Shown here: piece after piece, positions 18,139-37,608 of the stretch
How positions within the stretch are numbered: the first letter of the stretch is position 1
Layout of the letters: each line of letters opens with the position of its first letter
NCBI GenBank assembly: GCA_964291265.2
Contig: OZ219747.1
Span: 3,168,001-3,232,000, forward strand
DNA: 64,000 nt
Direction of reading: 5' to 3'
Source: Alphaproteobacteria bacterium
GTDB taxonomy: Bacteria; Pseudomonadota; Alphaproteobacteria; SP197
The notes under the pieces: generated by a model
What the model was told of the DNA's origin: nothing
Database searches by the model: none
What the model saw: only the letters and a program-made list of their open reading frames with translations
Made by a program: the position numbers and the translations under genes

Positions 18139-19323
18139 GTGGCAGACAGGGGTGACCAGGCCTTCAGGGGCACACGCAATCTCCATCGCCTGGCGCGTAC
18201 ATCTCAGACCCGGCAGGAAGAGGAGATCCGGCGAGGGCTGGAACTCGGCCTCGAAGCGGCTAACTCCATCAACGACAGGACCATCTCGCTGTTCAGCCGC
18301 GGCCATCTTCCGGCCTTTGCCGGCATCAACACGTTCATGAAGGCGCCCTACTGCGAGGACATCCGTAGGATCGGCGACTACGAAGCGGCATTTGTCGGCA
18401 TCCCCTTCGACACCGGGACGACTTACCGTCCCGGAACCCGTTTCGGCCCTCAGGCGGTGCGGCGAATCTCGGCTGTGTATGACGGTTACAGCGTTGATGG
18501 CGGCATCGATCTTCCCGAGGAACTCGATCTTGCCGATGCCGGAGATGTCTTCGTCATTCCGGGCAACATCGAGAAGACCTTCGACCAGGTCTCGAAGGCG
18601 GTGTCGCACGTCTACACCTCGGGCGCCTTTCCCATCCTCGTGGGCGGAGATCACAGCCTCGGCTATCCCAACGTCCGTGGCATCGCGCCCCACATCGACG
18701 GCAATGTCGGCATCATTCACTTCGACCGGCATATCGACATGGCTGACATGGACATGGACGAACGCATGCACACGACACCCTGGTACTGGACATCGAACGA
18801 TCACGAGAGTGTCCATCGGGCGGAGTCCCACCATGCCCACACGCACATGCACGATGTCGGTCTCGCCAATTGTCCGCCGAAGAACCTGGTGCAGATCGGC
18901 ATTGGTGGCTGGTACGGCTCGAGGCGTGGTTCCGAGATTGCCCGCGAACGCGGCACCAGCGTGCTGACCATGACCGATGTCGAGGAACTCGGCACCAGGA
19001 AGACAGCGGAAGTCGCCCTCGAACTCGCCTGGAAGGACGCGAAGGCTGTCTATCTTTCGTTCGACATCGATTCCATCGATCCCGGCTTCGCACCCGGAAC
19101 CGGGACCCCCGAACCCGGCGGTTTCACGCCGCGCGAGGCACTCGAGATGGTACGCCTGATCGCCCGTGAAGGCTTGTGCGGCATGGAAGTCGTCGAAGTC
19201 TCGCCGCCTTACGACGTCAACGACAACACCTCCCAACTGGCCTGCCGGGTTATCCTCGACGCCATCGGCACCATGGTGGTGGAAGGCAGGCTCGGCCACC
19301 GCGACCGCGTCATGATGGACTGA
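18139..19323 (+). CDS. Ureohydrolase (agmatinase/arginase family), guanidinase GdmH-like clade
   Basis: GGDHS, FDRHID, SFDIDSID, EVSP; N-terminal GLEAANSINDRTISLFSRGHLPAFAGINTFMKAPY resembles guanidine hydrolase as recalled; start uncertain (GTG 18139). Confidence 0.85.
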   Translation: MADRGDQAFRGTRNLHRLARTSQTRQEEEIRRGLELGLEAANSINDRTISLFSRGHLPAFAGINTFMKAPYCEDIRRIGDYEAAFVGIPFDTGTTYRPGTRFGPQAVRRISAVYDGYSVDGGIDLPEELDLADAGDVFVIPGNIEKTFDQVSKAVSHVYTSGAFPILVGGDHSLGYPNVRGIAPHIDGNVGIIHFDRHIDMADMDMDERMHTTPWYWTSNDHESVHRAESHHAHTHMHDVGLANCPPKNLVQIGIGGWYGSRRGSEIARERGTSVLTMTDVEELGTRKTAEVALELAWKDAKAVYLSFDIDSIDPGFAPGTGTPEPGGFTPREALEMVRLIAREGLCGMEVVEVSPPYDVNDNTSQLACRVILDAIGTMVVEGRLGHRDRVMMD

Positions 19324-19460
19324 TTCCGGGGTCAGGACGTCTGAACCCAGCCCGGTGCCGATCGGTCGTCGCACCCTCATCCAAGACAACAGGTCAGGCA
19401 GTACGGGTGTAAGCGTTCGGCCGTGCGGTGTTTGGGTCTTGCTGACTATCGTCTGAGAAA

Positions 19461-21112
19461 GGGTGTAGTTCTCGTATGGCGAAGCCAAGTCAATGATTTA
19501 TCACGGTCGTACGGTCGCGATGGAGCGGCAAATACGGGGTTTCGTGACAATTGCCCGTTGGACGAAGGCCGGATTTTGTCACGGTGGCAGGGCTTGGCGG
19601 TGGATGCGGGAACGCTCCGCACCGCAAGATGCGATATGATGCTGGCTTGAAACCACAACATCAGGAGCGCTCCCATGTCAGTGTCACAGCTTCGGCCTTC
19701 CGCGTCCATCGATCTTCTCGGCTTGCCGCCTCGGGTTGTCGAAGCGGTCACGCAAGTGACCGCGGTGTGTCATCGACAGCTTGGTTCAGAGCGCTCTGCC
19801 GAGGCCTTCGAGGAAGCGGAGCGGCGGGTGCTTGAGAGCGTGCACGCGCTTGGCTGCGAGATCCTGGGTGCCTGTGCCGAGGCCCGGGACGACGGTGCGC
19901 CCCGGATCGAACGGGACGGGCAGAACTGGTTCCGTGTGGCGCCGACGCCGAAGACGATCATGACCTCGCTCGGCCCGGTGACCTTTCGGCGTGCGCGCTA
20001 TCGCACCGGCGGGCACTGCCGGTCGCTGATGCCGGTGGACGAAAGCCTGGGCCTCGTCGACGACTACCTGACACGGCCGGCGGCTCAGCTTGGGCTGATG
20101 ATGATGGTCCACTGCACGGCGCGGGAAGCGGAGGCGTTCTTCGGCAAGCTCGGCGCCATGACGCCGTCTGTGAGCACCTTGCAGCGCTTGAGCCTGACCA
20201 TGCAGGAGCGTTGGGAACGTCTCGGCCCGCAGGCCCTGGATGGTATCCGGGAAGCCGAGGACATCCCGCAGGACGCGGTCACCGCCTCGGTCTCGCTCGA
20301 CGGCGTCATGGTGGCGCTGCGGGCCGGCGAGGACGGCCGTAGCGAGGCCTGCTGGCGCGAGGCGGCCTGTGGCACAGTCTCCTTCCACGACGCCGACGGT
20401 GAGCGCCTGAAGACCGTCTATCTCGGCCGCATGCCCGAGCGCGGCAAGTGCACGCTGAAGGCGCAGCTGGCAAGCGAGGTCGCGCATATCAGGCGCAAGC
20501 GTCCCGAGATCAGGATCAGCGCCATCGCCGACGCCGCCGCCGACAACTGGACCTTCCTCTCTGGTCTTGAACCCGAAACCGAGGTGATCGACTTCTGGCA
20601 TGCCTGCGAGCATCTGCGCGTGGTGGCCGACCATGCAGCGGCGCCCCACTGGTTCGAGAAGTACCGCGAGATCCTGCGTCACGACCCCCGCGGCATCGAC
20701 AAGGTGATCCGGGCGCTGCGCCACCTTCGCGACACCGCCAAGCCGGCGGGCCGAGCCGACATCGACAGGGAACTGGCCTTCTTCCGCAAGCATCGCCACC
20801 GCATGCGCTACCACGCACTGAAGCAACAGGGGATCGCCATCGGCTCGGGACTTGTCGAGGCAGCCAACAAGACCCTCGTCACACAGCGCATGAAGCGCTC
20901 CGGCATGCGCTGGCGCATCGTCGGCGGACAAGCCGTTCTCACCTTCCGCGCCCTGCTCAAATCAGGCCGCTTCGAGAGCGCGTGGACCGCCATGATCGAG
21001 GGCGACGACGCACCAGCCAACGACAACATCAACCCACATCACACCCCGGCGCCGGCCGCATGAGATGAAACAGTGGAACTGATTTTCAAATAGACATATA
21101 AAACTCACACCC
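19461..21112 (+). mobile_element. ISKra4-family insertion sequence
   Basis: Imperfect IRs gggtgtagttctcgtatg (19461) and revcomp gggtgtgagttttatatg (ending 21112); no TSD seen. Confidence 0.7.
19675..21063 (+). CDS. ISKra4-family transposase
   Basis: SLDGVMV, ADAAADNW, IDFWHACEHL, IGSGLVEAANKTLVTQRMKRSGMRW. Confidence 0.88.
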   Translation: MSVSQLRPSASIDLLGLPPRVVEAVTQVTAVCHRQLGSERSAEAFEEAERRVLESVHALGCEILGACAEARDDGAPRIERDGQNWFRVAPTPKTIMTSLGPVTFRRARYRTGGHCRSLMPVDESLGLVDDYLTRPAAQLGLMMMVHCTAREAEAFFGKLGAMTPSVSTLQRLSLTMQERWERLGPQALDGIREAEDIPQDAVTASVSLDGVMVALRAGEDGRSEACWREAACGTVSFHDADGERLKTVYLGRMPERGKCTLKAQLASEVAHIRRKRPEIRISAIADAAADNWTFLSGLEPETEVIDFWHACEHLRVVADHAAAPHWFEKYREILRHDPRGIDKVIRALRHLRDTAKPAGRADIDRELAFFRKHRHRMRYHALKQQGIAIGSGLVEAANKTLVTQRMKRSGMRWRIVGGQAVLTFRALLKSGRFESAWTAMIEGDDAPANDNINPHHTPAPAA

Positions 21113-21160
21113 TCCGTCATCAGAGGGGGTGAGTAGATACCACCGGGCAGTGATATCTCC

Positions 21161-21946
21161 ATGCCTTCCAAGGCGGACGAAATCCGGGCCTACGCCCTAG
21201 AGCGATACGTGCGGCCTTGGCGGGGCTCCGACGAAAACCGCCTCGTTATTCGTGCGGGCGACATCGTCAAAGGTATGCGGTTGCACAACGCCACGCCGAA
21301 CGTATGCAGTTCCCTTGCGAGCCGTAAGTTCCAGCACGATGCCGGTATCGTCCTCGTTCGTCGTGAGGGTCCGCATCAAAGCACGACCACAACGTTTCAC
21401 TATGAGCCCGTCCGATCGACCCTTGATCCTCCAACGCGCCCCGGAAATACTCCACCTCCCGCCCGAATCGTCGGCAATCGCGTAGCCACCGTCTGGGTCT
21501 CCGTCCCCGACGACTGCTGGCGGAGTGCCGATCTGTGTCTGGTTTCCTGTGTCAGCGTGAAGCAATCCGCCGCGGCACCGGCCAGGGACCTGTACGTTTC
21601 TCCCTGGTTTCAGAAAGCTCGCGCTTGCGTCGAAGCACTTGGTTGCCCGTGGTACATCCTGTCCGTGAAGCATGGGCTCCTTGATCCGGGATCGACGATC
21701 GAACCTTATGACGAGACGCTGAAGGCCATGCCGGTGTACCGGCGACGTACCTGGGCACGCGGTGTGATTGGGGACCTCGCTCCGCGCTTGGCGAGTGTCG
21801 ACACCGTGACCCTCTTCGCGGGAACGGCATATCGCGAGTTCCTTGAACCGGAATTGCGTGGTCAGGGGCTCAAGCTCTATGTACCGATGCAGGGAATGCG
21901 CATCGGCCAGCAGCTCTCATGGCTGTCCGGCCAGGACCGTTCGTGA
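21161..21946 (+). CDS. Two-domain protein: small N-terminal putative DNA-binding domain plus DUF6884-like domain
   Basis: N-term ADEIRAYALERYV..IRAGDI..PNVCSSL; Pro-rich linker; C-term LVSCVSVK..ARDLYVSPWF..ILSVKHGLL..IEPYDETL..PMQGMRIGQQLSWL. Confidence 0.7.
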   Translation: MPSKADEIRAYALERYVRPWRGSDENRLVIRAGDIVKGMRLHNATPNVCSSLASRKFQHDAGIVLVRREGPHQSTTTTFHYEPVRSTLDPPTRPGNTPPPARIVGNRVATVWVSVPDDCWRSADLCLVSCVSVKQSAAAPARDLYVSPWFQKARACVEALGCPWYILSVKHGLLDPGSTIEPYDETLKAMPVYRRRTWARGVIGDLAPRLASVDTVTLFAGTAYREFLEPELRGQGLKLYVPMQGMRIGQQLSWLSGQDRS

Positions 21947-22692
21947 ACGCCACTGAGCTGACGCCCGGCCGCATCGCCGATTCCCTTCGCTTCTACGCGC
22001 TTCTTTCACGCATCTCAGAGCGAACCGGTGGATATAGATATCTCGCGACCTGCGACGGGCGCATGGAGTGGCCTCGCCGCGGCGTGTACTTCTTCTTCGA
22101 GCCAGACGAGCCCCGAATCGATCCTGGCCTTGGTCTACGTGTGGTACGGATCGGCACCCATGCGCTGAAGCCGGCGTCCCGAACGTCGTTATGGAATCGA
22201 CTCTCGCAGCATCGGGGCAGCTCACGATCCGGCATGGGCAATCACCGTGGGTCGATATTTCGGCTGATCGTTGGCGCGGCGCTCGCGCGCCGTGCCGTTA
22301 CATCGTTACCGTCGAGTTGGGGAGTCGGCTCGGACACAAGCGCCGCCGCTCGTAAGCTCGGCTTGGACCGCTCGACCGTGCAGTGCGAAGAGGCCGATCT
22401 CGAGCGGCGGGTCAGCGAGTATATTGGCCAAATGCCGTTCCTGTGGCTCGGCGTCGACGACCCGCCGGGCCCGGCCAGCCTGCGCGGTGTGATCGAGCGA
22501 AACACCATCGCTTTGCTCAGCCACGCCCAAACTCCTGCCGTTGATACCCCGTCAGACCGGTGGCTCGGCGGGTTCAGTGATCGAGAGATGGTGCGCGCAT
22601 CCGGACTGTGGAACAATCATCACGTCGCAGAACCACACGATCCTTCATTTCTCGACGAGATGGACACGCTCGTAGCCCGCTTCTGCGAGTGA
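21943..22692 (+). CDS. Putative GIY-YIG-like nuclease
   Basis: RGVYFFF..RVVRIGTH..LWNRLSQH and a later IERNTI Glu; GTGA overlap with upstream gene. Confidence 0.6.
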   Translation: MNATELTPGRIADSLRFYALLSRISERTGGYRYLATCDGRMEWPRRGVYFFFEPDEPRIDPGLGLRVVRIGTHALKPASRTSLWNRLSQHRGSSRSGMGNHRGSIFRLIVGAALARRAVTSLPSSWGVGSDTSAAARKLGLDRSTVQCEEADLERRVSEYIGQMPFLWLGVDDPPGPASLRGVIERNTIALLSHAQTPAVDTPSDRWLGGFSDREMVRASGLWNNHHVAEPHDPSFLDEMDTLVARFCE

Positions 22693-22799
22693 ATTCCAGC
22701 GCTGCAATTCGCAGGCCTCGACTACCTGCCCGGTTACGTGCTCCGCTGCGTGAGCAGTACAGAGTCCGGGATCCATCTCCATCGAATTCTGCTTCGGTT

Positions 22800-23865
22800 C
22801 TCACGCCTTATCCGGGTCGGGCTGGAGTTTGCGGCCTTTGCCTTGCGCCTCGTCCCGGGTTCCGGCGGGCCCGCTCCGGCATTGCCTCAGGGTCTCGTGG
22901 AGCGTCTTCGCATCGTCCGTGACCAGTTCGACTCTGTGGCGCGCGGGCGGCTGATCTCGACGTAGAAGCTCTTCTGCGTCGACAGTTTCGGGGGTTTCGC
23001 CTCCATCACCGCGATCACCTTGTCGACGGTGCGCCCCTGAAAGGGATGCACGGTCGAGGCCCAAGCATGGCCGAGATGGCGCAACTGCGGGTCACTCTTG
23101 CCGAATTCGAGCATCCGGCCGTCGCCGAGCCGGAAGGCGACAACTTCGTCCGGCGAATAGTTCACCGCGACCGCTTTCTCGGCACTCGCATGGCCATGGT
23201 AGACCAGCCGCTCGGCCTGAAGACGAGGCTGCGCATGACGCCGTCGCGGGCGAGGCGTTGAGCGGATGTGGCCGTTGATCCCGATGCGGAGCGCATGGCT
23301 CGGCGTCACCGGCCCGGTGTTCTCGCGTTCGTGGGCGGAGAGCTTCAACAACCAGGGCGCGGCGGCCGCGCCAGCGAGGTTATCGGGTTTGACCTCCGCC
23401 CCCGGTCGCCGAGCTTTCCGAAGACCCTGCAGACCTCGTCGGCGAGGCTCGCCCGCACTGCCTCTTGCAGGTTGGTGTCCTCCTGGCGCAGAATCTCGTC
23501 CCTTGCCGCCGTTTTCATGCCGGCGGCCTGGAGCTGGGCGAAGGACTTATCGGCATCCACCGCGTCAAGCTGCTTCTCAACAGCCCACCGGCACCACGCG
23601 GGGTATGCGGATGGCGGCGGCGATCCGGAGCAGGTCGCGGGTCTGGACGGTCGAGGCAAGCGAGCCCTCGTCGACCCCCAGCATGGTCTTGCGGAACGCC
23701 GCGCGCATTTCCCTGGCGCCCTTCCGGGTCAGCCGGCCCTCGGCGACGCCGGCATTGCGGGCGAGGAAGCGCCGCAGGGTCTCGGTCTCGATCCAGGCTT
23801 CAGGCCGCCGACACGAGAGCCGCCCTTCGCGGCAAGCTGCCGGTCGAGGTTGAGCACCCATGGCT
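22800..23865 (-). pseudogene. TrwC/TraI (MOBF) relaxase-helicase C-terminal remnant
   Basis: Fragments in several frames: VDEGSLAST..DLLRIA, KQLDAVDA..FAQLQAAGMKTA..DEILRQ, HAWASTVHPFQGRTVDKVIAVM..QKSFYVEISR. Confidence 0.8.
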
Positions 23866-24134
23866 ATGCCGAGCGGAACGACGATCAGGCAGGCCGTGAA
23901 AGGGGGGCGAAGATGCGGAAACAGCTCTCGAGAACGTCGGCGATGTAGTTTTTTTCCACGATCAGGGTGATGAGGGCGCCAAAGATCTCCTGGGGCGCCG
24001 GGAGGAATCGCTGACTCTCTTCAGGGATGATGTGGTGACCGCGTGAGCGCCTTCAGGCAGATTGATGATGCGTTGATCGGGCAATTTAGTGGACATGAGC
24101 TTTCGCGCTGCGCTTGGTTTGCGGTTCTTGAAGG

Positions 24135-24998
24135 CTACTTGGAAGGGAAGGCTGGTGTTCGTGCCTTGAGGACGTCGTTCCAGTCTTTGTGTCCGTCTGG
24201 GGGTCTCATGCGGAGAGCTCTTGGGTCTTGGCTGACGAGGCGCTCGGCGGCCTGTTCTCCGACGGGATCGGCGTCGAAGGCGACGAGGATGCGCTTTGGC
24301 GTCCAGGCTTCGGCCCATGTTGGGAGACGGTAGGCGATGCCGGCGGTTGACAGGATCACGGTAGCGGATTGCCGACATTCCTTGAGGCACCATGCGGAGA
24401 GGGCGTCGATGGCGCTTTCGGTGATGATGATGGTGCGTGGCATGGAGCGGTCCACGGGGATCCAGAAGCTGCCGGCGGCCTTGCGTGATCCACGCGCCAT
24501 GGCTCTGTACTGCTTTCCGTCTGCGTTGGGGACGGTACCGACGATCTCGGCGCCGGAGAGGTCTCTTTGTGCGTTGGTGCATGTGAAGACGGCGTTTCTG
24601 CGTTCGTCGGCGGCGACGAGGCCGTGCTGTCGGCAAGCGTCCAGGCAACGGTCTGGCAGGCGGCGTTCATGGGCGAGGTAGTGGCGTACGACGTGCCAGG
24701 CTTCCTCGCAGTGCGTTGGTGTTCTCGGCCCCTTGCCGCCGGAGCGTGCGGTGAGGAGTGCGACGGCGTCGTTGAAGCTGCAGCGGTGTGCATGCATGAC
24801 GAGATCGATGGCGCCGCCACCGCCGGACTGGGTGATGTGGTCGAACCAGCGTTGTTGGTTGACGCTGATGACGGATCCGTGGCGCTTGAAGCGTCGCGGG
24901 TCGCGCGGGTCTCTTCGGTAGCCGAGCCGCAGGGCGAGTGGTTCGAGGGGCTGGTTGCGGATGTCATCGAGATGCTGATTGTCCCAGGACCGGATCAT
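24135..24998 (-). CDS. DUF3991/toprim-domain primase-like protein
   Basis: From ATG 24998: WFDH..GGGGAIDLVMH..FNDAV, ITESAIDALS, VAFDADPVGE, HKDWND. Confidence 0.85.
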   Translation of the reverse strand: MIRSWDNQHLDDIRNQPLEPLALRLGYRRDPRDPRRFKRHGSVISVNQQRWFDHITQSGGGGAIDLVMHAHRCSFNDAVALLTARSGGKGPRTPTHCEEAWHVVRHYLAHERRLPDRCLDACRQHGLVAADERRNAVFTCTNAQRDLSGAEIVGTVPNADGKQYRAMARGSRKAAGSFWIPVDRSMPRTIIITESAIDALSAWCLKECRQSATVILSTAGIAYRLPTWAEAWTPKRILVAFDADPVGEQAAERLVSQDPRALRMRPPDGHKDWNDVLKARTPAFPSK

Positions 24999-25033
24999 GG
25001 TCTGTCGAGCCTCCTGCGTGGTGGACGGGGGGT

Positions 25034-25098
25034 GGTTCCCGTTGGCGGTTCCCACCTGAACTCCCAGGGTGAACGGGAACCGGGAACCGGGAACCGCC
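25034..25098. repeat. GGGAACC heptamer cluster (iteron-like): 2 inverted plus 3 tandem copies
   Basis: ggttccc at 25034 and 25047; gggaacc at 25075, 25082, 25089; 10-bp IR ggcggttccc/gggaaccgcc. Confidence 0.8.
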
Positions 25099-25132
25099 TG
25101 GCGTCGGGGCGTTTTGCGCCTGGTTGTTGCGG

Positions 25133-26080
25133 TCAGGCTTTGGCGACGCGATAGGCACCGGGACCGTCCTGCGCGACACGTCCTTCCTGGACGAGCTTGG
25201 CCAGAAGCGTGGCGACGGTCGTGTTCCGTGTTGGGACGCGGTCCCGGACCTGGCGCAGCGAGAGCGGGGCATCGGCGTCGGCGAGGACCTGGACGATGCG
25301 CTGTTCGGGGGTTGGCGGCTGCGGCCTGGCGCCGTCTGGTTCCTGTTGCCGCAGCTGCAGGGCGGCTCCGTTGCCGCTGTCGGTGAGTTCGATGTCGAGA
25401 TCGGCGAGTCCGGGTGCGGCGCGGTGTTCGACGGTCATGAGGATGGTTTCGTGGCGGCGCCGCAGGTAGAGGTTGCTGTCGCCCCATGCGTGCAGCTCGC
25501 TGCTTCCGCGCAAGGCCTGTCCGGGCCGGCTGGCGGCGCTCTTGCGTGCGTGGTGGACGAGCAGCACGGCGGCGCCGGAGTGTCGCTGCACGTCGCGCAG
25601 GAAGCCGAGGATCGGCGCGATCTCGGCGACGGCGTTTTCGTCGACGCCGTGCAGGCGGACGAGGGGGTCGAGGATGAGCAGGCGGGAGCCGTGACGCTCG
25701 ACGGTCTCGAGCAGGCTCTGGCGGTCGGTTGGGTGGTCGAGGCGCAGTGCGGGGACGTCGATGACGGCGATGTCGAGGGTGTCGAAGTCGGCGCCGGCTG
25801 CGGCGGCGATGCCCTGGAGGCGGCGTCGCACGATGTGGCCGGCGTCCTCGGCGGCGAACATGAGCACCGGTCCGGGGTGCACGGCCGGGAAGCGGCGCAG
25901 ACAGGGGACGCCGGCGGCGACGGCGACGGCGAGATCGAGGGCGAGGAAGGACTTTCCGCACTTGGGTTCGCCGCCGATGATGCCGACGGCCTCGCGGCCC
26001 CACAGGCCGTCGACGAGCCACTGCCCCTCGGTTGGCCGGTCCTCGAGTTCGGCCGGGCTGCGGGTTGGCAGGCCGATCAT
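25133..26080 (-). CDS. RepA-like AAA (RecA-fold) helicase with C-terminal winged helix
   Basis: WLVDGLW, GEPKCGKS Walker A, AAED, LILDPL, LVHHARK, LRGSS; C-terminal wHTH-like segment. Confidence 0.85.
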   Translation of the reverse strand: MIGLPTRSPAELEDRPTEGQWLVDGLWGREAVGIIGGEPKCGKSFLALDLAVAVAAGVPCLRRFPAVHPGPVLMFAAEDAGHIVRRRLQGIAAAAGADFDTLDIAVIDVPALRLDHPTDRQSLLETVERHGSRLLILDPLVRLHGVDENAVAEIAPILGFLRDVQRHSGAAVLLVHHARKSAASRPGQALRGSSELHAWGDSNLYLRRRHETILMTVEHRAAPGLADLDIELTDSGNGAALQLRQQEPDGARPQPPTPEQRIVQVLADADAPLSLRQVRDRVPTRNTTVATLLAKLVQEGRVAQDGPGAYRVAKA

Positions 26081-26907
26081 CGTGTGCGCCTCGGCGGGAT
26101 GGGTTCGCCCCAGGTTTCGAGGAAGAGCTTTTCGTCGAGCACCTCGCGGTCGGTGTCGAGGGCGACAGCGAGGAGGTTGTCGGCGAGGATGGTCAGGGAG
26201 CGCGGATTGCCGTCTGCATGGACGACGAGGGTCTCCTTGAGGCCGGGGGTCATGAGGCCTGGATTGCCGGCGGCGTCGAGCAGGTGGTCGAGCAGGCGGA
26301 GCAGTTCGTCGGGTTCGCAGCGCGTCATGACGAGGCGTTGACGGACCCGCGAGGCGACGGCTTGCAGGTCGGGGCTGTGCAGCTTGGCGAGCAGGCGGCT
26401 GTCGCCGGCCAGGACGACGCTGAGGATGGCGCGCGAGTCGAACTCCGTGGAGGCGAGCAGGCGCAGTTCGGTGAGCACGGCCTGCGGCATCTCCTGGGCC
26501 TCGTCGACGAGCAGGACCGGGCGCATGCGGGTGTCCTCGAGATGGGTGAGCCAGCACTCGCGCAAGGCCTTGAAGCCGGCCCAGAGGTTCCGGCGCAGGG
26601 TCGTGATGCCGAAGAGGTCGGTCATCTCGCGGTAGAAGTCTGCGGTGCTCGACGAGGGATGGGCGAGAAGGGCGACGTCGAGGCCCTCCGCGGTCTCGAG
26701 ACGCTCGTCGAGCAGGCGCAGGGCGACGCTCTTGCCGGTGCCATGCTCGCCGGCCACCACGGCGAAGCCGCCCTGGCGCACGAGCTGACGCTCGATCCTG
26801 CGGCAGAAGCTGTCGATCGCGGGCGTTGCGAGAAGGCCCTCGACCGGCAGGTCGGCGGCGAAGGGGTTCCACTTGAGGCCGTAATGGGTGAGGTGTTGGC
26901 GGTTCAT
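26077..26907 (-). CDS. ExeA-family AAA+ ATPase (TnsC/MuB-like transposition helper)
   Basis: YGLKWNPF, GEHGTGKS, LLVDEAQEM, VLAG, GNPR. Confidence 0.88.
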   Translation of the reverse strand: MNRQHLTHYGLKWNPFAADLPVEGLLATPAIDSFCRRIERQLVRQGGFAVVAGEHGTGKSVALRLLDERLETAEGLDVALLAHPSSSTADFYREMTDLFGITTLRRNLWAGFKALRECWLTHLEDTRMRPVLLVDEAQEMPQAVLTELRLLASTEFDSRAILSVVLAGDSRLLAKLHSPDLQAVASRVRQRLVMTRCEPDELLRLLDHLLDAAGNPGLMTPGLKETLVVHADGNPRSLTILADNLLAVALDTDREVLDEKLFLETWGEPIPPRRTR

Positions 26908-28421
26908 GACATGTCTCCCTGATCGTTGTTGTCCTTGCCTTCGTCGTCCGGGCCGGCATCCTTGCCGAAGGGCAACCATGCCGGGGGCAGGCCGGTGGCG
27001 TCCTGCTCGTCGCGCAGGCGCTTGAGCAGCGGCGCCGGCCCGGTCTGTGGCTTCACCTCGTCGTCTTCTCTCCGGCGCCCGGTCCGGCGGCGGAGCCCCT
27101 CGGCGTTGCGAGACTTGTCCACCGGACGCAGGGTCGAGATGCGGTCCCCGGTGCGGCCGTCGACCATGTCGATGCCGGAGAGGTCCCAGCGGGCGACGCG
27201 CAGGTCGATCTCGCGCAGGTGGCGCCACGGCGCCGGCAGTTGATAGCGGACACTCGCCACCGTCACCGTGGCGTCGGAGCGTCGCACCTTGCGACGCACC
27301 TTGATGCGGAAGGCGGCCCGGAGTTCGCTGCTGTCCGGGCATGTCCGCGAGGCGTCCTCGCTGTCGATCACGCGCCTGAGCGGCGTGACCCCCGTCTCGC
27401 GGTGTACGCGGCGGTGATACTCGCGCTCGACCCAGATGACGGTGGCGTCGTTCAGGTCCTGCAGGGTCAGGGTCTCGACGTTCTCGAGCATCGCCATCAG
27501 GCGGCCCTCGACCTGGGCGAACAGCACCTCCTGCTTGCCGTTCTGGTACGGGCTGCGGACAAGCGTGTGGTGGTGCAGCACGCCGAGGGCGTGCAGTCCC
27601 TCCTGCACCTCCCCGGCCGTCATCGCCGATCCGTTGTCGGTCAGAAGGGACCGCGGCAGCCCTCGCTTCATGAAGGCCTGGCTGATGCCGTGAACGAAGA
27701 TCTCCGTGGTCTCCCCGAGATACCACTGCATGTGGCAGACGAGACGCGAATGGTCGTCGATGAAGCTGAGCAGGATCGGCGTCCTCCACTCCCCGGACGG
27801 CGTCAGCACGCGACAGGTCCGCGCATGGTGGAAGTCGGCGTGCCACAGGGCATGGCTGCGCGAGACCTCGTAGCTCAGCACCTCGCGCCCCTCGACCGCA
27901 GGCCGCTCCGCTTCACCACCGAACTTCCGCTGCCGCCGCCGCCGCTCCAGGCCCGCCGAACGCATGACCCGGGTCAGCGTCGCATAGGACGGCATCGGCC
28001 CGAGCGAAGGGTCGGCCTCGACCAGCGCGCAAAGGTTGTCGTGGTGGAGCTGAACCGACCACGTGGGGTGCGCCCTGTACTGGTCGCGCAAGGCCGCCAT
28101 CAGCAGGGGTGAGACGCTCCGCGCACGACCGGCGTCGCAGCGCACCCGACGGCGCAGCGCCCGCACCGGATCCCGGTCGGCCGACCGCGCCTTGTAGTAC
28201 CAGCGCTCGATCGTCGACACCGAGAAGCGGATCGTGCCGCCCCTGACGGGATGCTCCCAGTCCCGCCGCGACAGCCGTTGAAGCTCGGCCCGCAGACCCC
28301 CCTTCGGCGGCGGCGACGCCAGCAGCGGGCCAACCACCGCAAAGCGCAGCCGCGTCCAGGCGTCCCCGGCGTCCGCTTCGTCCTTCGTCACCACGACGGC
28401 CTTCCTCCCTCGTCGTCCCAT
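26904..28421 (-). CDS. DDE-type integrase/transposase (rve core, Mu-like C-terminus)
   Basis: N-terminal HTH (STIERW), LWHADFH, IDDHSR, TDNGSAM, PYQNGKQE, RKVRRSDATVTV. Confidence 0.9.
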   Translation of the reverse strand: MGRRGRKAVVVTKDEADAGDAWTRLRFAVVGPLLASPPPKGGLRAELQRLSRRDWEHPVRGGTIRFSVSTIERWYYKARSADRDPVRALRRRVRCDAGRARSVSPLLMAALRDQYRAHPTWSVQLHHDNLCALVEADPSLGPMPSYATLTRVMRSAGLERRRRQRKFGGEAERPAVEGREVLSYEVSRSHALWHADFHHARTCRVLTPSGEWRTPILLSFIDDHSRLVCHMQWYLGETTEIFVHGISQAFMKRGLPRSLLTDNGSAMTAGEVQEGLHALGVLHHHTLVRSPYQNGKQEVLFAQVEGRLMAMLENVETLTLQDLNDATVIWVEREYHRRVHRETGVTPLRRVIDSEDASRTCPDSSELRAAFRIKVRRKVRRSDATVTVASVRYQLPAPWRHLREIDLRVARWDLSGIDMVDGRTGDRISTLRPVDKSRNAEGLRRRTGRRREDDEVKPQTGPAPLLKRLRDEQDATGLPPAWLPFGKDAGPDDEGKDNNDQGDMS

Positions 28422-28443
28422 GGGAGGAAGGCCCTATACGGTC

Positions 28444-29058
28444 CTATGTCATCGCACTACAGGCACTCTCTGCGGGCGGCGACAGACCCTCGACGATCCT
28501 GCAGAAGCCGGTCCACGGCATGAGCCAGACCAGGCTCCGCAGAAGGCGCGATCGAAACGATCCGCCGCGCATCAAGCGCACCAGGGCCACAAGCGGAGGC
28601 TCGTCCGCCTCCACCGCCAGATCGCCACGTTTCCAGCGCCACGCCGCCGTCGCCGGGAACCTCTCCCGCCACCATCGACGCCACCGGCCAAGCGTCCTCT
28701 CCGGGATGCCAGACATGCGGCTCGCCTTCGCCAGGGGAACACTGCCGCACAGAACCAGGAGGCTCGCAGCCAGGTACACCGGCGCCGCACGGAACCTCCG
28801 GCCGAAGAAGCGCACCGAGGGCGGAGTCGTCCGGCTCCTGCACTCAGCACAGCAGAAGCTGAAGCGGCGGTTGTCGCCGCGAAGAGCAGGCGCAAGCGCG
28901 TGCGGCTTGCGCGGATACCGCGCACTGTGAAGGCGACCGCCGCAATGCGGGCATCCCTCCAGGCGGCAGCGCTCCGCCTCGGCCGCATCAATCCTCTCAA
29001 GGAGAGGCCAGACATGAGCGCAGGAAAGTATGGGACCCGGGAAGGAAACGTGCGACAT
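28444..29058 (-). CDS. Zn-finger/HTH protein (DUF6431-like) of DDE-ExeA elements
   Basis: CPHCGGRLH..YPRKP, FSFCCAECRSRTTPPSVRF, RTLGRWRRWW. Confidence 0.7.
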   Translation of the reverse strand: MSHVSFPGPILSCAHVWPLLERIDAAEAERCRLEGCPHCGGRLHSARYPRKPHALAPALRGDNRRFSFCCAECRSRTTPPSVRFFGRRFRAAPVYLAASLLVLCGSVPLAKASRMSGIPERTLGRWRRWWRERFPATAAWRWKRGDLAVEADEPPLVALVRLMRGGSFRSRLLRSLVWLMPWTGFCRIVEGLSPPAESACSAMT

Positions 29059-29095
29059 TGACTGGCCTCCGGTGATCTCACCGTCACGGAGACAA

Positions 29096-29132
29096 GCCCC
29101 TCGGCCGACTTCTTGCAAGTCGGTCGAGGGGC
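29096..29132. other. 16-bp stem hairpin upstream of the element's first gene
   Basis: gcccctcggccgactt-cttgc-aagtcggtcgaggggc, one G-T pair. Confidence 0.75.
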
Positions 29133-29526
29133 AAACACACCAGACCAGCAGACAATTCAAGCAGAAACGACGGAATCCACGTCAAAAATCGCGCAAACGC
29201 TTACCGCGTTCCTCGATGATGAAGGTTCCGGTTGCTCCAGCGAGACCGGGGACGAGGGCGGTTCTGTCCAATGGCACGGTGCGCGATTCGAAGAGCGATG
29301 CACTGCGCCTGGCGATCCGATTCATATCCTTGCCTCGGCGCTTTCGTAGTCTGACCACGCCGGATTCCGATCGTCCGGGCCCTTGCCACTCATGGATGGA
29401 ACCTCTCCACGGCGGTGACGATATCAACGGTCGCACATGCCGATCAAGGAGCCGCGGCGACACCTTGAATTGAGAGGGTCGATATGCGGAAATGGCCTCT
29501 CTGCAACCGAATCCGGGAGAGACCCG

Positions 29527-33431: not shown

Positions 33432-35385
33432 CCGAAGTTCCAGCGTCGATCAAGTGCAACTGCTTGATATAAATGGCATTCGATGGATCTCAGAGGCGTC
33501 TGACTGGGTACATCACGGCTTCACGCCCAGGAGCTTGAGTGCTTTTCTCTGGAGCGGCGTGGGCCGCGTGGTGACCTGGAAGGGTTGGGCGCCCGCAAGG
33601 CGGGGCGCCACGGTGTTGCGGGTGATGGTCGCGAGATCATCGAGGAGAGTGCGGAAGCTGTGCACCGGATCACCCCCGGGTGTCCTCTTGGTTGCCGCCT
33701 TGGCCCGGGCGCTCGCCGAGACTTCTGCCGGCGCCACGACGGACGGCCGCCGGGCCTCGGCGCCTTCGGCATCCTCGTCGTCGAACAGCATGGGCTTCAG
33801 TTTCTGGCGCATGTGCCATTCGATGTAGTAGGCGAGCATGCACAGGAAGACATGGGCGCGGACCCGGGGTTCGGTGCGGTGGTAGACGGGGCGGACCTTC
33901 AGATCCACGGTCTTCAGGCTGCGGAAGGCCCGTTCCACCGAACTCAGCCGCTTGTAGGCGCGCACTGTGCCGGGACCGTCGAGCTCGCTCTGCGGCAGGC
34001 TGGTGCGGATCACGTAGAGGCCGTCGAGCCTGGCCTCGGCGGCGATGGCAGCCTCATCGCGCCCATAGGTGAAGACACCCTCGTCGTCGATGGACCACGT
34101 GAAGTGCTTCGCCATCTTGTACTTGCCGATGACCTTGCCGACCCTCTCCCCGATCTTGTCGGCACCCTTGAGACGGCGCTTGTCGCGCCGTGTCGCTGCG
34201 GCGATCGGTTCAAGCAGGGCCTCGGTGGCCTCGAGCAGTTCCTGGCGCTTGCGGGCCCGGTCCTCGGCCAGCAGGGGGTTGCGGCAGACCATGAGGCGTT
34301 CGCCGGGATACGCATCGCTGGTGATCTCCACCAGGTCCCTCTCGTCGAAGAGCGACATCTCGACGTCACCCGCCTCCACCAGTGAACGGATGGCCGGTCC
34401 CCTCAAGGCGCTGATCCAGTCCAGGCCTGCGGGCTTCACCTCCTCGCGTATGCGCGCCTCGGTCAGCATCCCCCGGTCTCCCACCAGCACCACCTTCGCC
34501 AGGGAGAAGCGCTCCTGCAGCGTGGTGATCTGTGAGGCAACCGTCCCGGGGTCCGCCGTGTTGCCGGGGAACACTTCCACCGACACTGGACAGCCGTCCC
34601 GATCGCACAGAAGGCCGAACTCGATCTGCAGCTTGCCCTTCTTGCCATCCCGGGAATGACCCCTCCTTGCCAGGGGACACGCTCTCCCCTCCATCCATAC
34701 CGAGGTCAGGTCATAGAGCACCAGGCAGCCTTCTTTGAGGCGCTGCTTCGCCAGGGACCGCTCGATCCTCTCCTGACGCTCCAGGAGCCAGTCCATGGCG
34801 CCATAGAGGGCGTCCTCGTCCATCTCCGCATCGAGGACCTCGCCCAGGGTGCTGACCGCCGTGGCCTCGGCCAGCCCCCTGGCCGTGGCCAGCTTCGAGG
34901 CGGGCTCGAGGATGCGTGCCACGATCATGGCCAGGACCTGATCGCGCTCAGGCGAGGGCTTCGGGTCGATCAACCTGTCCAGTCCCAGCTTCTTCAGGGT
35001 TCCCAGCACCGCGGCGACATGCCCATGGGGGAGGGAGCGGACGATGTCGAAGGCATCGTCGAGATGTCGGACTGCTGTTCCTCCCTTGAGGAGGATGCGC
35101 AATCCCTCGACGAGAGTGGGGGACCACTTGGAGAGGTTGGCGATGGTGCGCTTCTTGACCTTTCCGTTTTCGCGATAGGACTCGCGGAGCAGGATGGCGG
35201 GCGGCGAGGAGCGGTTGGGGACGGCTTCGATGTACATGGCTACTGTACATAGGCACGGCACTGCCGTGTGTCAAGCACAAAATGCATCCGTACATGGGTA
35301 CATTGTGAAGTCCGTCAAACCCGATAAACCGCGCAAGATCAACGACTTGACGCGACTTCCAGCTGGAAAACGTCCGGAACTTCGG
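33432..35385 (-). mobile_element. IS1634-family element copy 1, 6-bp TSD CCTAGG
   Basis: IRs ccgaagttcc/ggaacttcgg; cctagg at 33426-33431 and 35386-35391. Confidence 0.93.
33513..35237 (-). CDS. IS1634-family transposase
   Basis: LYDLTS, GHSRD, GNTAD, VGDRGM, VERAFRSLK, VRAHVFLCMLAY. Confidence 0.93.
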   Translation of the reverse strand: MYIEAVPNRSSPPAILLRESYRENGKVKKRTIANLSKWSPTLVEGLRILLKGGTAVRHLDDAFDIVRSLPHGHVAAVLGTLKKLGLDRLIDPKPSPERDQVLAMIVARILEPASKLATARGLAEATAVSTLGEVLDAEMDEDALYGAMDWLLERQERIERSLAKQRLKEGCLVLYDLTSVWMEGRACPLARRGHSRDGKKGKLQIEFGLLCDRDGCPVSVEVFPGNTADPGTVASQITTLQERFSLAKVVLVGDRGMLTEARIREEVKPAGLDWISALRGPAIRSLVEAGDVEMSLFDERDLVEITSDAYPGERLMVCRNPLLAEDRARKRQELLEATEALLEPIAAATRRDKRRLKGADKIGERVGKVIGKYKMAKHFTWSIDDEGVFTYGRDEAAIAAEARLDGLYVIRTSLPQSELDGPGTVRAYKRLSSVERAFRSLKTVDLKVRPVYHRTEPRVRAHVFLCMLAYYIEWHMRQKLKPMLFDDEDAEGAEARRPSVVAPAEVSASARAKAATKRTPGGDPVHSFRTLLDDLATITRNTVAPRLAGAQPFQVTTRPTPLQRKALKLLGVKP

Positions 35386-35654: not shown

Positions 35655-37608
35655 CCGAAGTTCCAGCGCCGATCAAGTGCAAGTGCTTGATATAAATGGC
35701 ATTCGATGGATCTCAGGGGCGTCTGACTGGGTACATTACGGCTTCACGCCCAGGAGCTTGAGTGCTCTTCTCTGGAGCGGCGTGGGCCGCGTGGTGACCT
35801 GGAAGGGTTGGGCGCCCGCAAGGCGGGGCGCCACGGTGTTGCGGGTGATGGTCGCGAGATCATCGAGGAGAGTGCGGAAGCTGTGCACCGGATCACCCCC
35901 GGGCGTCCTCTTGGTTGCCGCCTTGGCCCGGGCGCTCGCCGAGACTTCTGCCGGCGCCACGACGGACGGCCGCCGGGCCTCGGCGCCTTCGGCATCCTCG
36001 TCGTCGAACAGCATGGGCTTCAGTTTCTGGCGCATGTGCCATTCCACGTAGTAGGCGAGCATGCACAGGAAGACATGGGCGCGGACCCGGGGTTCGGTGC
36101 GGTGGTAGACGGGGCGGACCTTCAGATCCACGGTCTTCAGGCTGCGGAAGGCCCGTTCCACCGAACTCAGCCGCTTGTAGGCGCGCACTGTGCCGGGACC
36201 GTCGAGCTCGCTCTGCGGCAGGCTGGTGCGGATCACGTAGAGGCCGTCGAGCCTGGCCTCGGCGGCGATGGCAGCCTCATCGCGCCCATAGGTGAAGACA
36301 CCCTCGTCGTCGATGGACCACGTGAAGTGCTTCGCCATCTTGTACTTGCCGATGACCTTGCCGACCCGCTCCCCGATCTTGTCGGCACCCTTGAGACGGC
36401 GCTTGTCGCGCCGTGTCGCTGCGGCGATCGGTTCAAGCAGGGCCTCGGTGGCCTCGAGCAGTTCCTGGCGCTTGCGGGCCCGGTCCTCGGCCAGCAGGGG
36501 GTTGCGGCAGACCATGAGGCGTTCGCCGGGATACGCATCGCTGGCGATCTCCACCAGGTCCTTCTCGCCGAAGAGCGACATCCCGACGTCACCCGCCTCC
36601 ACCAGTGAACGGATGGCCGGTCCCCTCAAGGCGCTGATCCAGTCCAGGCCTGCGGGCTTCACCTCCTCGCGTATCCGCGCCTCGGTCAGCATCCCCCGGT
36701 CTCCCACCAGCACCACCTTCGCCAGGGAGAAGCGCTCCTGCAACGTGGTGATCTGTGATGCCACCGTCCCGGGGTCCGCCGTGTTGCCGGGGAACACTTC
36801 CACCGACACTGGACAGCCGTCCCGATCGCACAGAAGGCCGAACTCGATCTGCAGCTTGCCCTTCTTGCCGTCCCGGGAATGACCCCTCCTGGCCAGGGGG
36901 CACGCTCTCCCCTCCATCCATACCGAGGTCAGGTCATAGAGCACCAGGCAGCCCTCTTCGAGGCGCCGCTTCGCCAGGGACCGCTCGATCCTCTCCTGAC
37001 GCTCCAGGAGCCAGTCCATGGCGCCGTAGAGGGCGTCCTCGTCCATCTCCGCATCGAGGACCTCGCCCAGGGTGGAGACCGCCGTGGCCTCGGCCAGCCC
37101 CCTGGCCGTGGCCAGCTTCGAGGCGGGCTCGAGGATGCGTGCCACGATCATGGCCAGGACCTGATCGCGCTCATGCGAGGACTTCGGGTCGATCAGCCTG
37201 TCCAGTCCCAGCTTCTTCAGGCCTCCCAGCACCGCGGCGACATGCCCGTGGGGTAGGGAGCGGACGATGTCGAAGGCATCGTCGAGATGTCGGACTGCTG
37301 TTCCTCCCTTGAGGAGGATGCGCAATCCCTCGACGAGGGTGGGGGACCACTTGGAGAGGTTGGCGATGGTACGCTTCTTGACCTTTTCGTCTTCGCGATA
37401 GGACTCGCGGAGCAGGATGGCGGGCGGCGAGGAGCGGTTGGGGACGGCTTCGATGTACATGGCTACCGTACATAGGCACAGCACTGCCGTGTGTCAAGCA
37501 CAAAATGCATCCGTACATGGGTACACTGTGAAGTCCGTCAAACCCGATAAACCACGCAATATCAACGACTTGACGCGATTTCCAGCTGGAAAACGTCCGG
37601 AACTTCGG
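35655..37608 (-). mobile_element. IS1634-family element copy 2, 6-bp TSD GCTAGA
   Basis: Same IRs; gctaga at 35649-35654 and 37609-37614. Confidence 0.93.
35736..37460 (-). CDS. IS1634-family transposase
   Basis: Near-identical to 33513..35237 with scattered substitutions. Confidence 0.93.
   Translation of the reverse strand: MYIEAVPNRSSPPAILLRESYREDEKVKKRTIANLSKWSPTLVEGLRILLKGGTAVRHLDDAFDIVRSLPHGHVAAVLGGLKKLGLDRLIDPKSSHERDQVLAMIVARILEPASKLATARGLAEATAVSTLGEVLDAEMDEDALYGAMDWLLERQERIERSLAKRRLEEGCLVLYDLTSVWMEGRACPLARRGHSRDGKKGKLQIEFGLLCDRDGCPVSVEVFPGNTADPGTVASQITTLQERFSLAKVVLVGDRGMLTEARIREEVKPAGLDWISALRGPAIRSLVEAGDVGMSLFGEKDLVEIASDAYPGERLMVCRNPLLAEDRARKRQELLEATEALLEPIAAATRRDKRRLKGADKIGERVGKVIGKYKMAKHFTWSIDDEGVFTYGRDEAAIAAEARLDGLYVIRTSLPQSELDGPGTVRAYKRLSSVERAFRSLKTVDLKVRPVYHRTEPRVRAHVFLCMLAYYVEWHMRQKLKPMLFDDEDAEGAEARRPSVVAPAEVSASARAKAATKRTPGGDPVHSFRTLLDDLATITRNTVAPRLAGAQPFQVTTRPTPLQRRALKLLGVKP

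Follow-up and report, generated by a model that had tools for sequence, protein, structure and literature searches.

Within the 64,000-nucleotide window analysed here (the whole stretch of DNA, to which all coordinates refer), two forward-strand genes joined by a four-base overlap (gene 1, 21161..21946; gene 2, 21943..22692) are, judged from profile matches, a further copy of the catalogued phage-defence candidate PDC-M57, in a form that bears a winged helix. We put the probability that the pair constitutes a two-part modification-dependent restriction system at roughly one half; on this reading the product of gene 1 would detect an abnormal base in phage or plasmid DNA entering the cell, and that of gene 2 would cut close to it. 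Both proteins match the PADLOC models over nearly their full length, gene 1 to PDC-M57A (E 3.2e-34, profile positions 4-135 of 138) and gene 2 to PDC-M57B (E 2.7e-78, positions 3-232 of 238), and, as in PDC-M57, the two genes are adjacent (4-bp overlap) and co-oriented. With these matches the reading of the pair as a new system is rejected. The earlier note had proposed an uncharacterised defence system, a description that holds for the function but not for the system itself, which is already in the catalogue. The PDCs are 145 predicted systems, chosen for lying inside BREX, DISARM or type I RM loci and put forward for later tests, according to the available portion of the preprint by Payne et al. 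(10.1101/2024.01.29.577857), the main text of which, as far as it was available, does not contain the name PDC-M57. Unlike the RM-embedded cassettes from which the PDCs were chosen, the pair described here does not lie inside an RM system. No paper with a functional test of any PDC-M57 member was found in the literature searched, which was thin on subscription papers, and we count this against the restriction reading; the same literature yielded the Pfam paper only for PF26468, PF21818 and GIY_YIG_3.

Gene 1 encodes a 261-residue PDC-M57A homologue with an extra N-terminal domain. Its structural model (pLDDT 88.6) is folded over residues 1-85 and 120-258 and falls below 50 in a Pro-rich, low-confidence linker (residues 88-115; 21422..21505, forward strand), which bears out the layout read earlier from the letters, namely an approximately 80-residue N-terminal domain, a linker and an SCxxxK domain. 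The last of these is a DUF6884 domain (residues 126-256; 21536..21928, forward strand) that scores 151 bits against PF21818, the Pfam gathering cut-off being 30, and that has the YaaA fold, so that the resemblance to YaaA proposed in the earlier note is upheld. In structure comparison the DUF6884 part of the model aligns with YaaA at Z 9.4 (136 residues aligned, rmsd 3.5), and the C-terminal part aligns with AF0587 at Z 8.3 (118 aligned). C130 and K134 of the CxxxK motif are present in 80 of 80 sequences; in the LSAxxG motif the Leu, Ser and Gly are kept and the Ala is replaced by Val in this allele only (position 169). The unnamed N-terminal domain (about 84 residues; 21161..21412, forward strand) is a predicted winged helix. 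Residues 1-85 resemble the winged helices of Stn1, CtsR, GntR and RPA at Z 5.3-6.1, which is a generic level, and the fold is shared at that generic level with the DpnI-type winged-helix readers of 6mA; it is absent from the 138-position M57A model. NCBIfam holds no family for gene 1 or gene 2, neither model matched the PDB by Foldseek at E<=0.001, and profile searches of PDB sequences, run for gene 1, for gene 2 and for the N-terminal domain, gave no significant match.

Gene 2 encodes 249 residues from a GTG start, with an in-frame ATG at 21919 as an alternative, and carries a precomputed Pfam assignment to PF26468, named GIY_YIG_3 (score 0.97). The GVYFF, RIG and NRLSQH motifs and the later glutamate (E185), from which a GIY-YIG pattern had been proposed, are present and conserved. 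When the model (pLDDT 95.8) was searched against 48,161 chains, the top six matches were all GIY-YIG proteins, at Z 3.5-5.2, and the next, unrelated, chain scored 2.5; the six were T4 EndoII (5.2), UvrC (4.9), a plant Grx domain (4.7), I-TevI (4.3), PD-T4-3 (4.1, with 90 residues aligned and rmsd 2.9) and Eco29kI (3.5). Each score is low singly, and it is because six matches agree that we assign the GIY-YIG fold. Y49, R86, H90, E185 and N224, kept in 79-82 of 82 sequences, form a putative catalytic site on the basis of motif spacing; they would include the counterparts of the canonical GIY tyrosine (Y49, 80/82), catalytic arginine (R86, 82/82) and metal-binding glutamate (E185, 79/82). The tyrosine of the YIG motif is replaced by Arg69 in 78 of 82 sequences, for which reason gene 2 is filed under a divergent GIY_YIG_3 branch and not with the canonical enzymes of the UvrC or I-TevI type; together with the low Z scores, this replacement counts against the restriction reading. 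A predicted complex between gene 2 and the DUF6884 domain scored 0.01, which weighs neither way, and gene 2 had no match in 50,697 phage records.

Both genes are evidently real and under selection, not chance frames, since homologues run into thousands (5576 for gene 2 at 90% clustering, and 176 for gene 1 within the lengths searched) and dN/dS values are 0.21-0.29 in three of three pairwise comparisons per gene against three collinear homologues. The interval 21040-22976 is identical in one public contig, which may be the source sample. At the junction (21943..21946, forward strand) the stop of gene 1 doubles as the GTG start of gene 2, and this arrangement is kept in the three close homologues inspected; among 45 loci with unfused genes, 15 have a start/stop overlap of this kind. 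Translational coupling within mobile elements is typical of toxin-antitoxin or self-marking pairs, and the present pair could be of this kind, with DUF6884 either modifying host DNA (as a DpdC-like writer) or restraining the nuclease, which would cut unmarked DNA or kill the cell when released. The invariant Cys and Lys suggest catalysis, and the available text on DpdC describes an enzyme that converts preQ0-DNA into ADG-DNA (PMC10164549). Against this reading, partner-less nuclease genes exist, one of them in this genome, single-chain fusions are common in both orders, and no dpdA/dpdB-type gene was found among the neighbours examined. We consider this alternative quite improbable.

The nuclease is almost always accompanied by a YaaA-fold protein. 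Among the at least 600 pattern matches listed, 519 loci were confirmed and the best 80 were kept; a DUF6884-type partner lies within 1.5 kb on the same strand in 69 of these best 80, of which 50 have a DUF6884 partner (5 fused) and 19 a divergent DUF6884 relative with CxxxK and LSAGWG (Pfam DUF6884 E ~1e-5, below the cut-off). Five more of the 80 have a weaker YaaA-like partner, and the two genes are thus conserved together. Six of the 80 have no partner, two of them at contig ends, and these count against the restriction reading. Fusions were counted in the 68 sequences of at least 300 aa among the 150 best 50%-identity representatives of gene 2; the nuclease is fused to DUF6884 in 29 (25 N-terminal and 4 C-terminal, hence in both orders) and to other YaaA-like domains in 9. 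The 30 long representatives that have no YaaA-type domain again weigh against restriction. Two of these sequences bear the ScoMcrA N-terminal domain (PDB 5zmm; E 2e-9 and 3e-11), and three more are linked to those two by BLAST. We know of no function for this domain, and the fusion therefore demonstrates parts shared with a type IV enzyme and not a reader.

A number of variant arrangements were also seen. This genome holds a solo, distant GIY_YIG_3/PDC-M57B-like gene (L086; G000 C2:974863-975507), for which profiles found no YaaA-fold partner genome-wide, and a partner-less gene 2 homologue elsewhere (L017:8873-9948) follows two DUF488 genes that match PDC-M45B and C. In L008, L010, L022, L030 and L091 the pair is followed by another, longer gene of the YaaA family, so that some loci have two YaaA-fold proteins. 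L016, L018, L022 and L054 share an upstream gene (family 17, about 240 aa) that has no Pfam or PADLOC match and may resemble helix-hairpin-helix glycosylases. On two haloarchaeal plasmids (L114, L116) gene 2 homologues adjoin DUF6610 genes, and in L116 DUF6884 lies four genes further; the DUF6610 gene searched had no PDB or PADLOC match. Two proteins (P0145, P0202) have GIY_YIG_3 fused to a common C-terminal region of about 480 aa with no Pfam match. The C-terminal domain of P0167 looked to us, from a motif, like a phosphorothioate-binding domain; it had no PDB match and was not counted.

We favour the restriction reading because YaaA-fold relatives point to abnormal DNA bases and because enzymes that join a reader to a GIY-YIG nuclease have been proven on modified DNA, as the available text of two reports states (PMC12923530, PMC11037411). 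Of the relatives, YfjM, a member of the DUF6884 family, was enriched on abasic and ribonucleotide lesions in a pull-down (PMC10220248, in the part available) and has been modelled flipping a base (PMC11701544, likewise). These are the only DUF6884 binding data, and they concern damage, not phage modifications; in that respect they count against restriction. YfjM, YaaA (PF03883) and DpdC have the same fold and CxxxK motif as the DUF6884 domain of gene 1; in the available descriptions YaaA and YfjM have no partner nuclease, unlike gene 1, and DpdC works within a large Dpd modification cluster of a kind not present here, dpdA/dpdB and dpdD-K genes being absent from the cassette and its flanks. 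As regards the nuclease, CMoRE/PD-T4-3, a 5hmC-dependent enzyme (PMC12923530, in the text available), and the wH-GIY-YIG type IV enzymes resemble the pair in having a GIY-YIG nuclease with a separate DNA-reading module (PMC12923530, PMC11037411). They differ from it, so far as the available text describes them, in being single chains with tested readers of 5hmC or 6mA, whereas here there are two genes and a putative YaaA-fold reader, and gene 2, from a larger and divergent branch, has Arg where the YIG motif has Tyr. In keeping with type IV restriction, the two-gene unit between the insertion sequence and the relaxase remnant contains no cognate methyltransferase.

It is reasonable to postulate that DUF6884 flips a non-canonical base into a pocket formed by its Cys and Lys, perhaps altering it, that the winged helix strengthens the hold on DNA or provides a second reading, and that GIY_YIG_3 then nicks or cuts through Y49, R86, H90, E185 and N224. 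By analogy, our leading guess for the target would be 7-deazaguanine derivatives, because DpdC is a DUF6884 relative: it is annotated with DUF6884 in the available portion of one preprint (10.1101/2025.02.24.639861), it acts on preQ0-modified DNA, as mentioned above, and its profile matches gene 1 weakly (E 5.6e-5). No TGT/DpdA-type Pfam match occurred among 262 neighbouring proteins, so that nothing here points directly to deazaguanine, and this too counts against the restriction reading. Dag glycosylases, which are unrelated, act against deazaguanine phages in a report whose available text does not mention YaaA, DpdC or GIY (10.1101/2025.10.29.685425). A still wider proposal, which we hold unlikely, is that GIY_YIG_3 with a YaaA-fold partner forms a widespread class of modification-dependent restriction system. 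Its sensor would be a base-flipping and possibly catalytic domain of the YaaA/DpdC type, directed at phage DNA that contains 7-deazaguanine or is hypermodified in a similar way; the nuclease would have been paired with several different YaaA-fold subfamilies, and the winged helix would be a swappable extra reader, shared with McrB. If the pair does restrict modified phage DNA, a listed candidate would be validated, the YaaA fold would join the known readers of DNA modification, and there would be a handle on the long-unexplained chemistry of YaaA, DUF6884 and DpdC proteins.

The enrichment of YfjM on DNA lesions would fit a role in accessory DNA repair, wherein DUF6884 would find abasic sites, ribonucleotides or oxidised bases in host DNA and the GIY-YIG protein would incise in the manner of UvrC. 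YaaA is tied to oxidative stress (PMC11701544, in the part available), UvrC is the second-best fold match of gene 2, gene 1 is weakly like the uracil-DNA glycosylase family by Foldseek (E 0.02-0.1), and the surroundings of many loci are housekeeping genes, with genes for Fpg, MutS or a 5'-3' exonuclease adjoining a few. The patchy presence of the pair at variable positions (gene 2 occurs in 4 of 22 congeners) and its carriage on conjugative elements nevertheless fit conflict systems better, as do domains shared with McrB, ScoMcrA, HNH and HEPN proteins, and we regard repair as unlikely.

Those shared domains include, in particular, the winged helix, which stands in the same open reading frame as DUF6884 in 16 of the best 80 loci and is fused elsewhere to HEPN_Swt1, HNH and MIT_C (PLD-like) proteins, an HNH protein among them matching a type IV REase model. 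The earlier note stated that this domain is also fused to McrB-like proteins. Such a fusion was absent from the top 120 of 410 matches to the domain and was then found in plasmid records (92, two of them inspected), where the domain lies inside McrB-type ATPases and the next gene encodes McrC or a restriction endonuclease; in a 718-aa McrB it spans residues 108-187 with a probability of 98.9%, and the statement is thereby confirmed. The McrBC-type systems concerned, on plasmids of Raoultella, Klebsiella and Caulobacter, share the domain of about 80 aa with gene 1 and differ from the pair in their NTPase and McrC, both absent here.

The expectation that the pair would be enriched near known defence genes was answered in part. 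Genes were called with a crude script, and the near set took at most two per side of the best 80 loci, with a single member per family, each trimmed to 430 aa (262 proteins); the far set was a sample of 140 out of 250 genes lying 7 kb or more from the loci, and the background comprised 148 genes of 10 genomes from the genus and class of the host, taken from 20 arbitrarily chosen 10-kb stretches. PADLOC matches at E<=1e-20 numbered 24/262 near, 11/140 far and 6/148 in the background, a raw comparison that gave P=0.07 for near against background and no difference between near and far, which we count against restriction. A post-hoc filter that demanded a match over at least 60% of the protein and dropped transposon genes removed 7, 3 and 4 rows respectively and left 17/262, 8/140 and 2/148, with P=0.025 for near against background; a near-versus-far gradient was not found after the filter (P=0.83), and all these P values are subject to dependence among the genes and to a control that was not matched by taxon. 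Among the neighbours that could be named are Kiwa, Wadjet, Avs2, Uzume, type I and II methyltransferases and pAgo; most neighbours are housekeeping genes, which again counts against the restriction reading. There is thus a modest excess over background without a local gradient, and it lends modest support, in line with the lesser association of PDCs with other defence systems that is described in the available text of the preprint (10.1101/2024.01.29.577857).

The locus itself confirms the earlier placement of the GTGA-joined pair between an ISKra4 element and a relaxase remnant. The flanking ureohydrolase and dehydrogenase genes, 3.3-5.1 kb apart in 12 of 22 congeners, are 10.2 kb apart here, and homology to two aligned congeners breaks off at 19323, returns at 23857-24044 and picks up once more at 29204, so that 19324-23856 is foreign. 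The right edge is marked by the remnant (23857..24043, reverse strand) of a transporter operon that fills the interval in congeners; in one of these (G019) the interval holds transporter-like ORFs, judged by eye, with no BLAST match in this genome. None of the four congeners with gene 2 carries it at this site, and two of the four have it beside RM genes (one a type III RM pair, one two methyltransferases); its spread is horizontal as well as patchy. The closest relative (L001, 84% over 21141-22888) has the order Kiwa, pair, intact 993-aa TrwC, and the pair here lies beside C-terminal helicase pieces only of a TrwC relaxase gene (22762..23809, reverse strand), with deletions and frameshifts. 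The suggestion that the pair is cargo of a decayed conjugative element is thereby borne out.

Upstream, an ISKra4-like insertion sequence (19460..21112, forward strand; transposase 19675-21063, which scores 156 bits where NCBIfam requires 205) stops 48 bp short of gene 1; it has 10 other full-length copies in the genome, and no target duplication was seen at this one. Homology to the upstream DNA of L001 begins only at 21141, leaving about 20 bp of native upstream sequence, and the element has replaced the upstream DNA of the pair. Whatever the mechanism, this copy might accordingly be a silent, decaying remnant, a prospect that we hold possible if doubtful. No sigma-70-like site was found in 20900-22900 (0.4 expected by chance), Val occupies position 169, at which Ala is found in 75 of 80 homologues and in a near-identical strain, and the adjoining relaxase is wrecked; yet both frames are intact, all invariant columns are kept, each gene deviates at only one column conserved at 85% or more, and IS ends can supply promoters to downstream genes. 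This copy adds little beyond its winged-helix variant and the Kiwa-plus-relaxase context of its closest relative, and cleaner copies would be better test subjects.

Other mobile DNA is plentiful in this genome. At least five near-full-length TrwC-like relaxase genes, 41-44% identical to the L001 protein, occur at several sites of G000 C2, so that the genome holds many conjugative or mobilisable elements. Immediately to the right of the foreign segment, at a point that is continuous in congeners, a 5.16-kb transposon (24044-29203) has inserted, which encodes an rve transposase, an ExeA-like AAA_22 ATPase, an AAA_25 helicase and a Toprim/DUF3991 primase-like protein. Five more copies at 99.3-99.5% identity, with 5-bp target duplications in four of the four copies inspected, mark this transposon with its own primase and helicase genes as recently active. 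Further along, two adjacent and near-identical transposase-like ORFs of 574 aa occupy 33516-35237 and 35739-37460.
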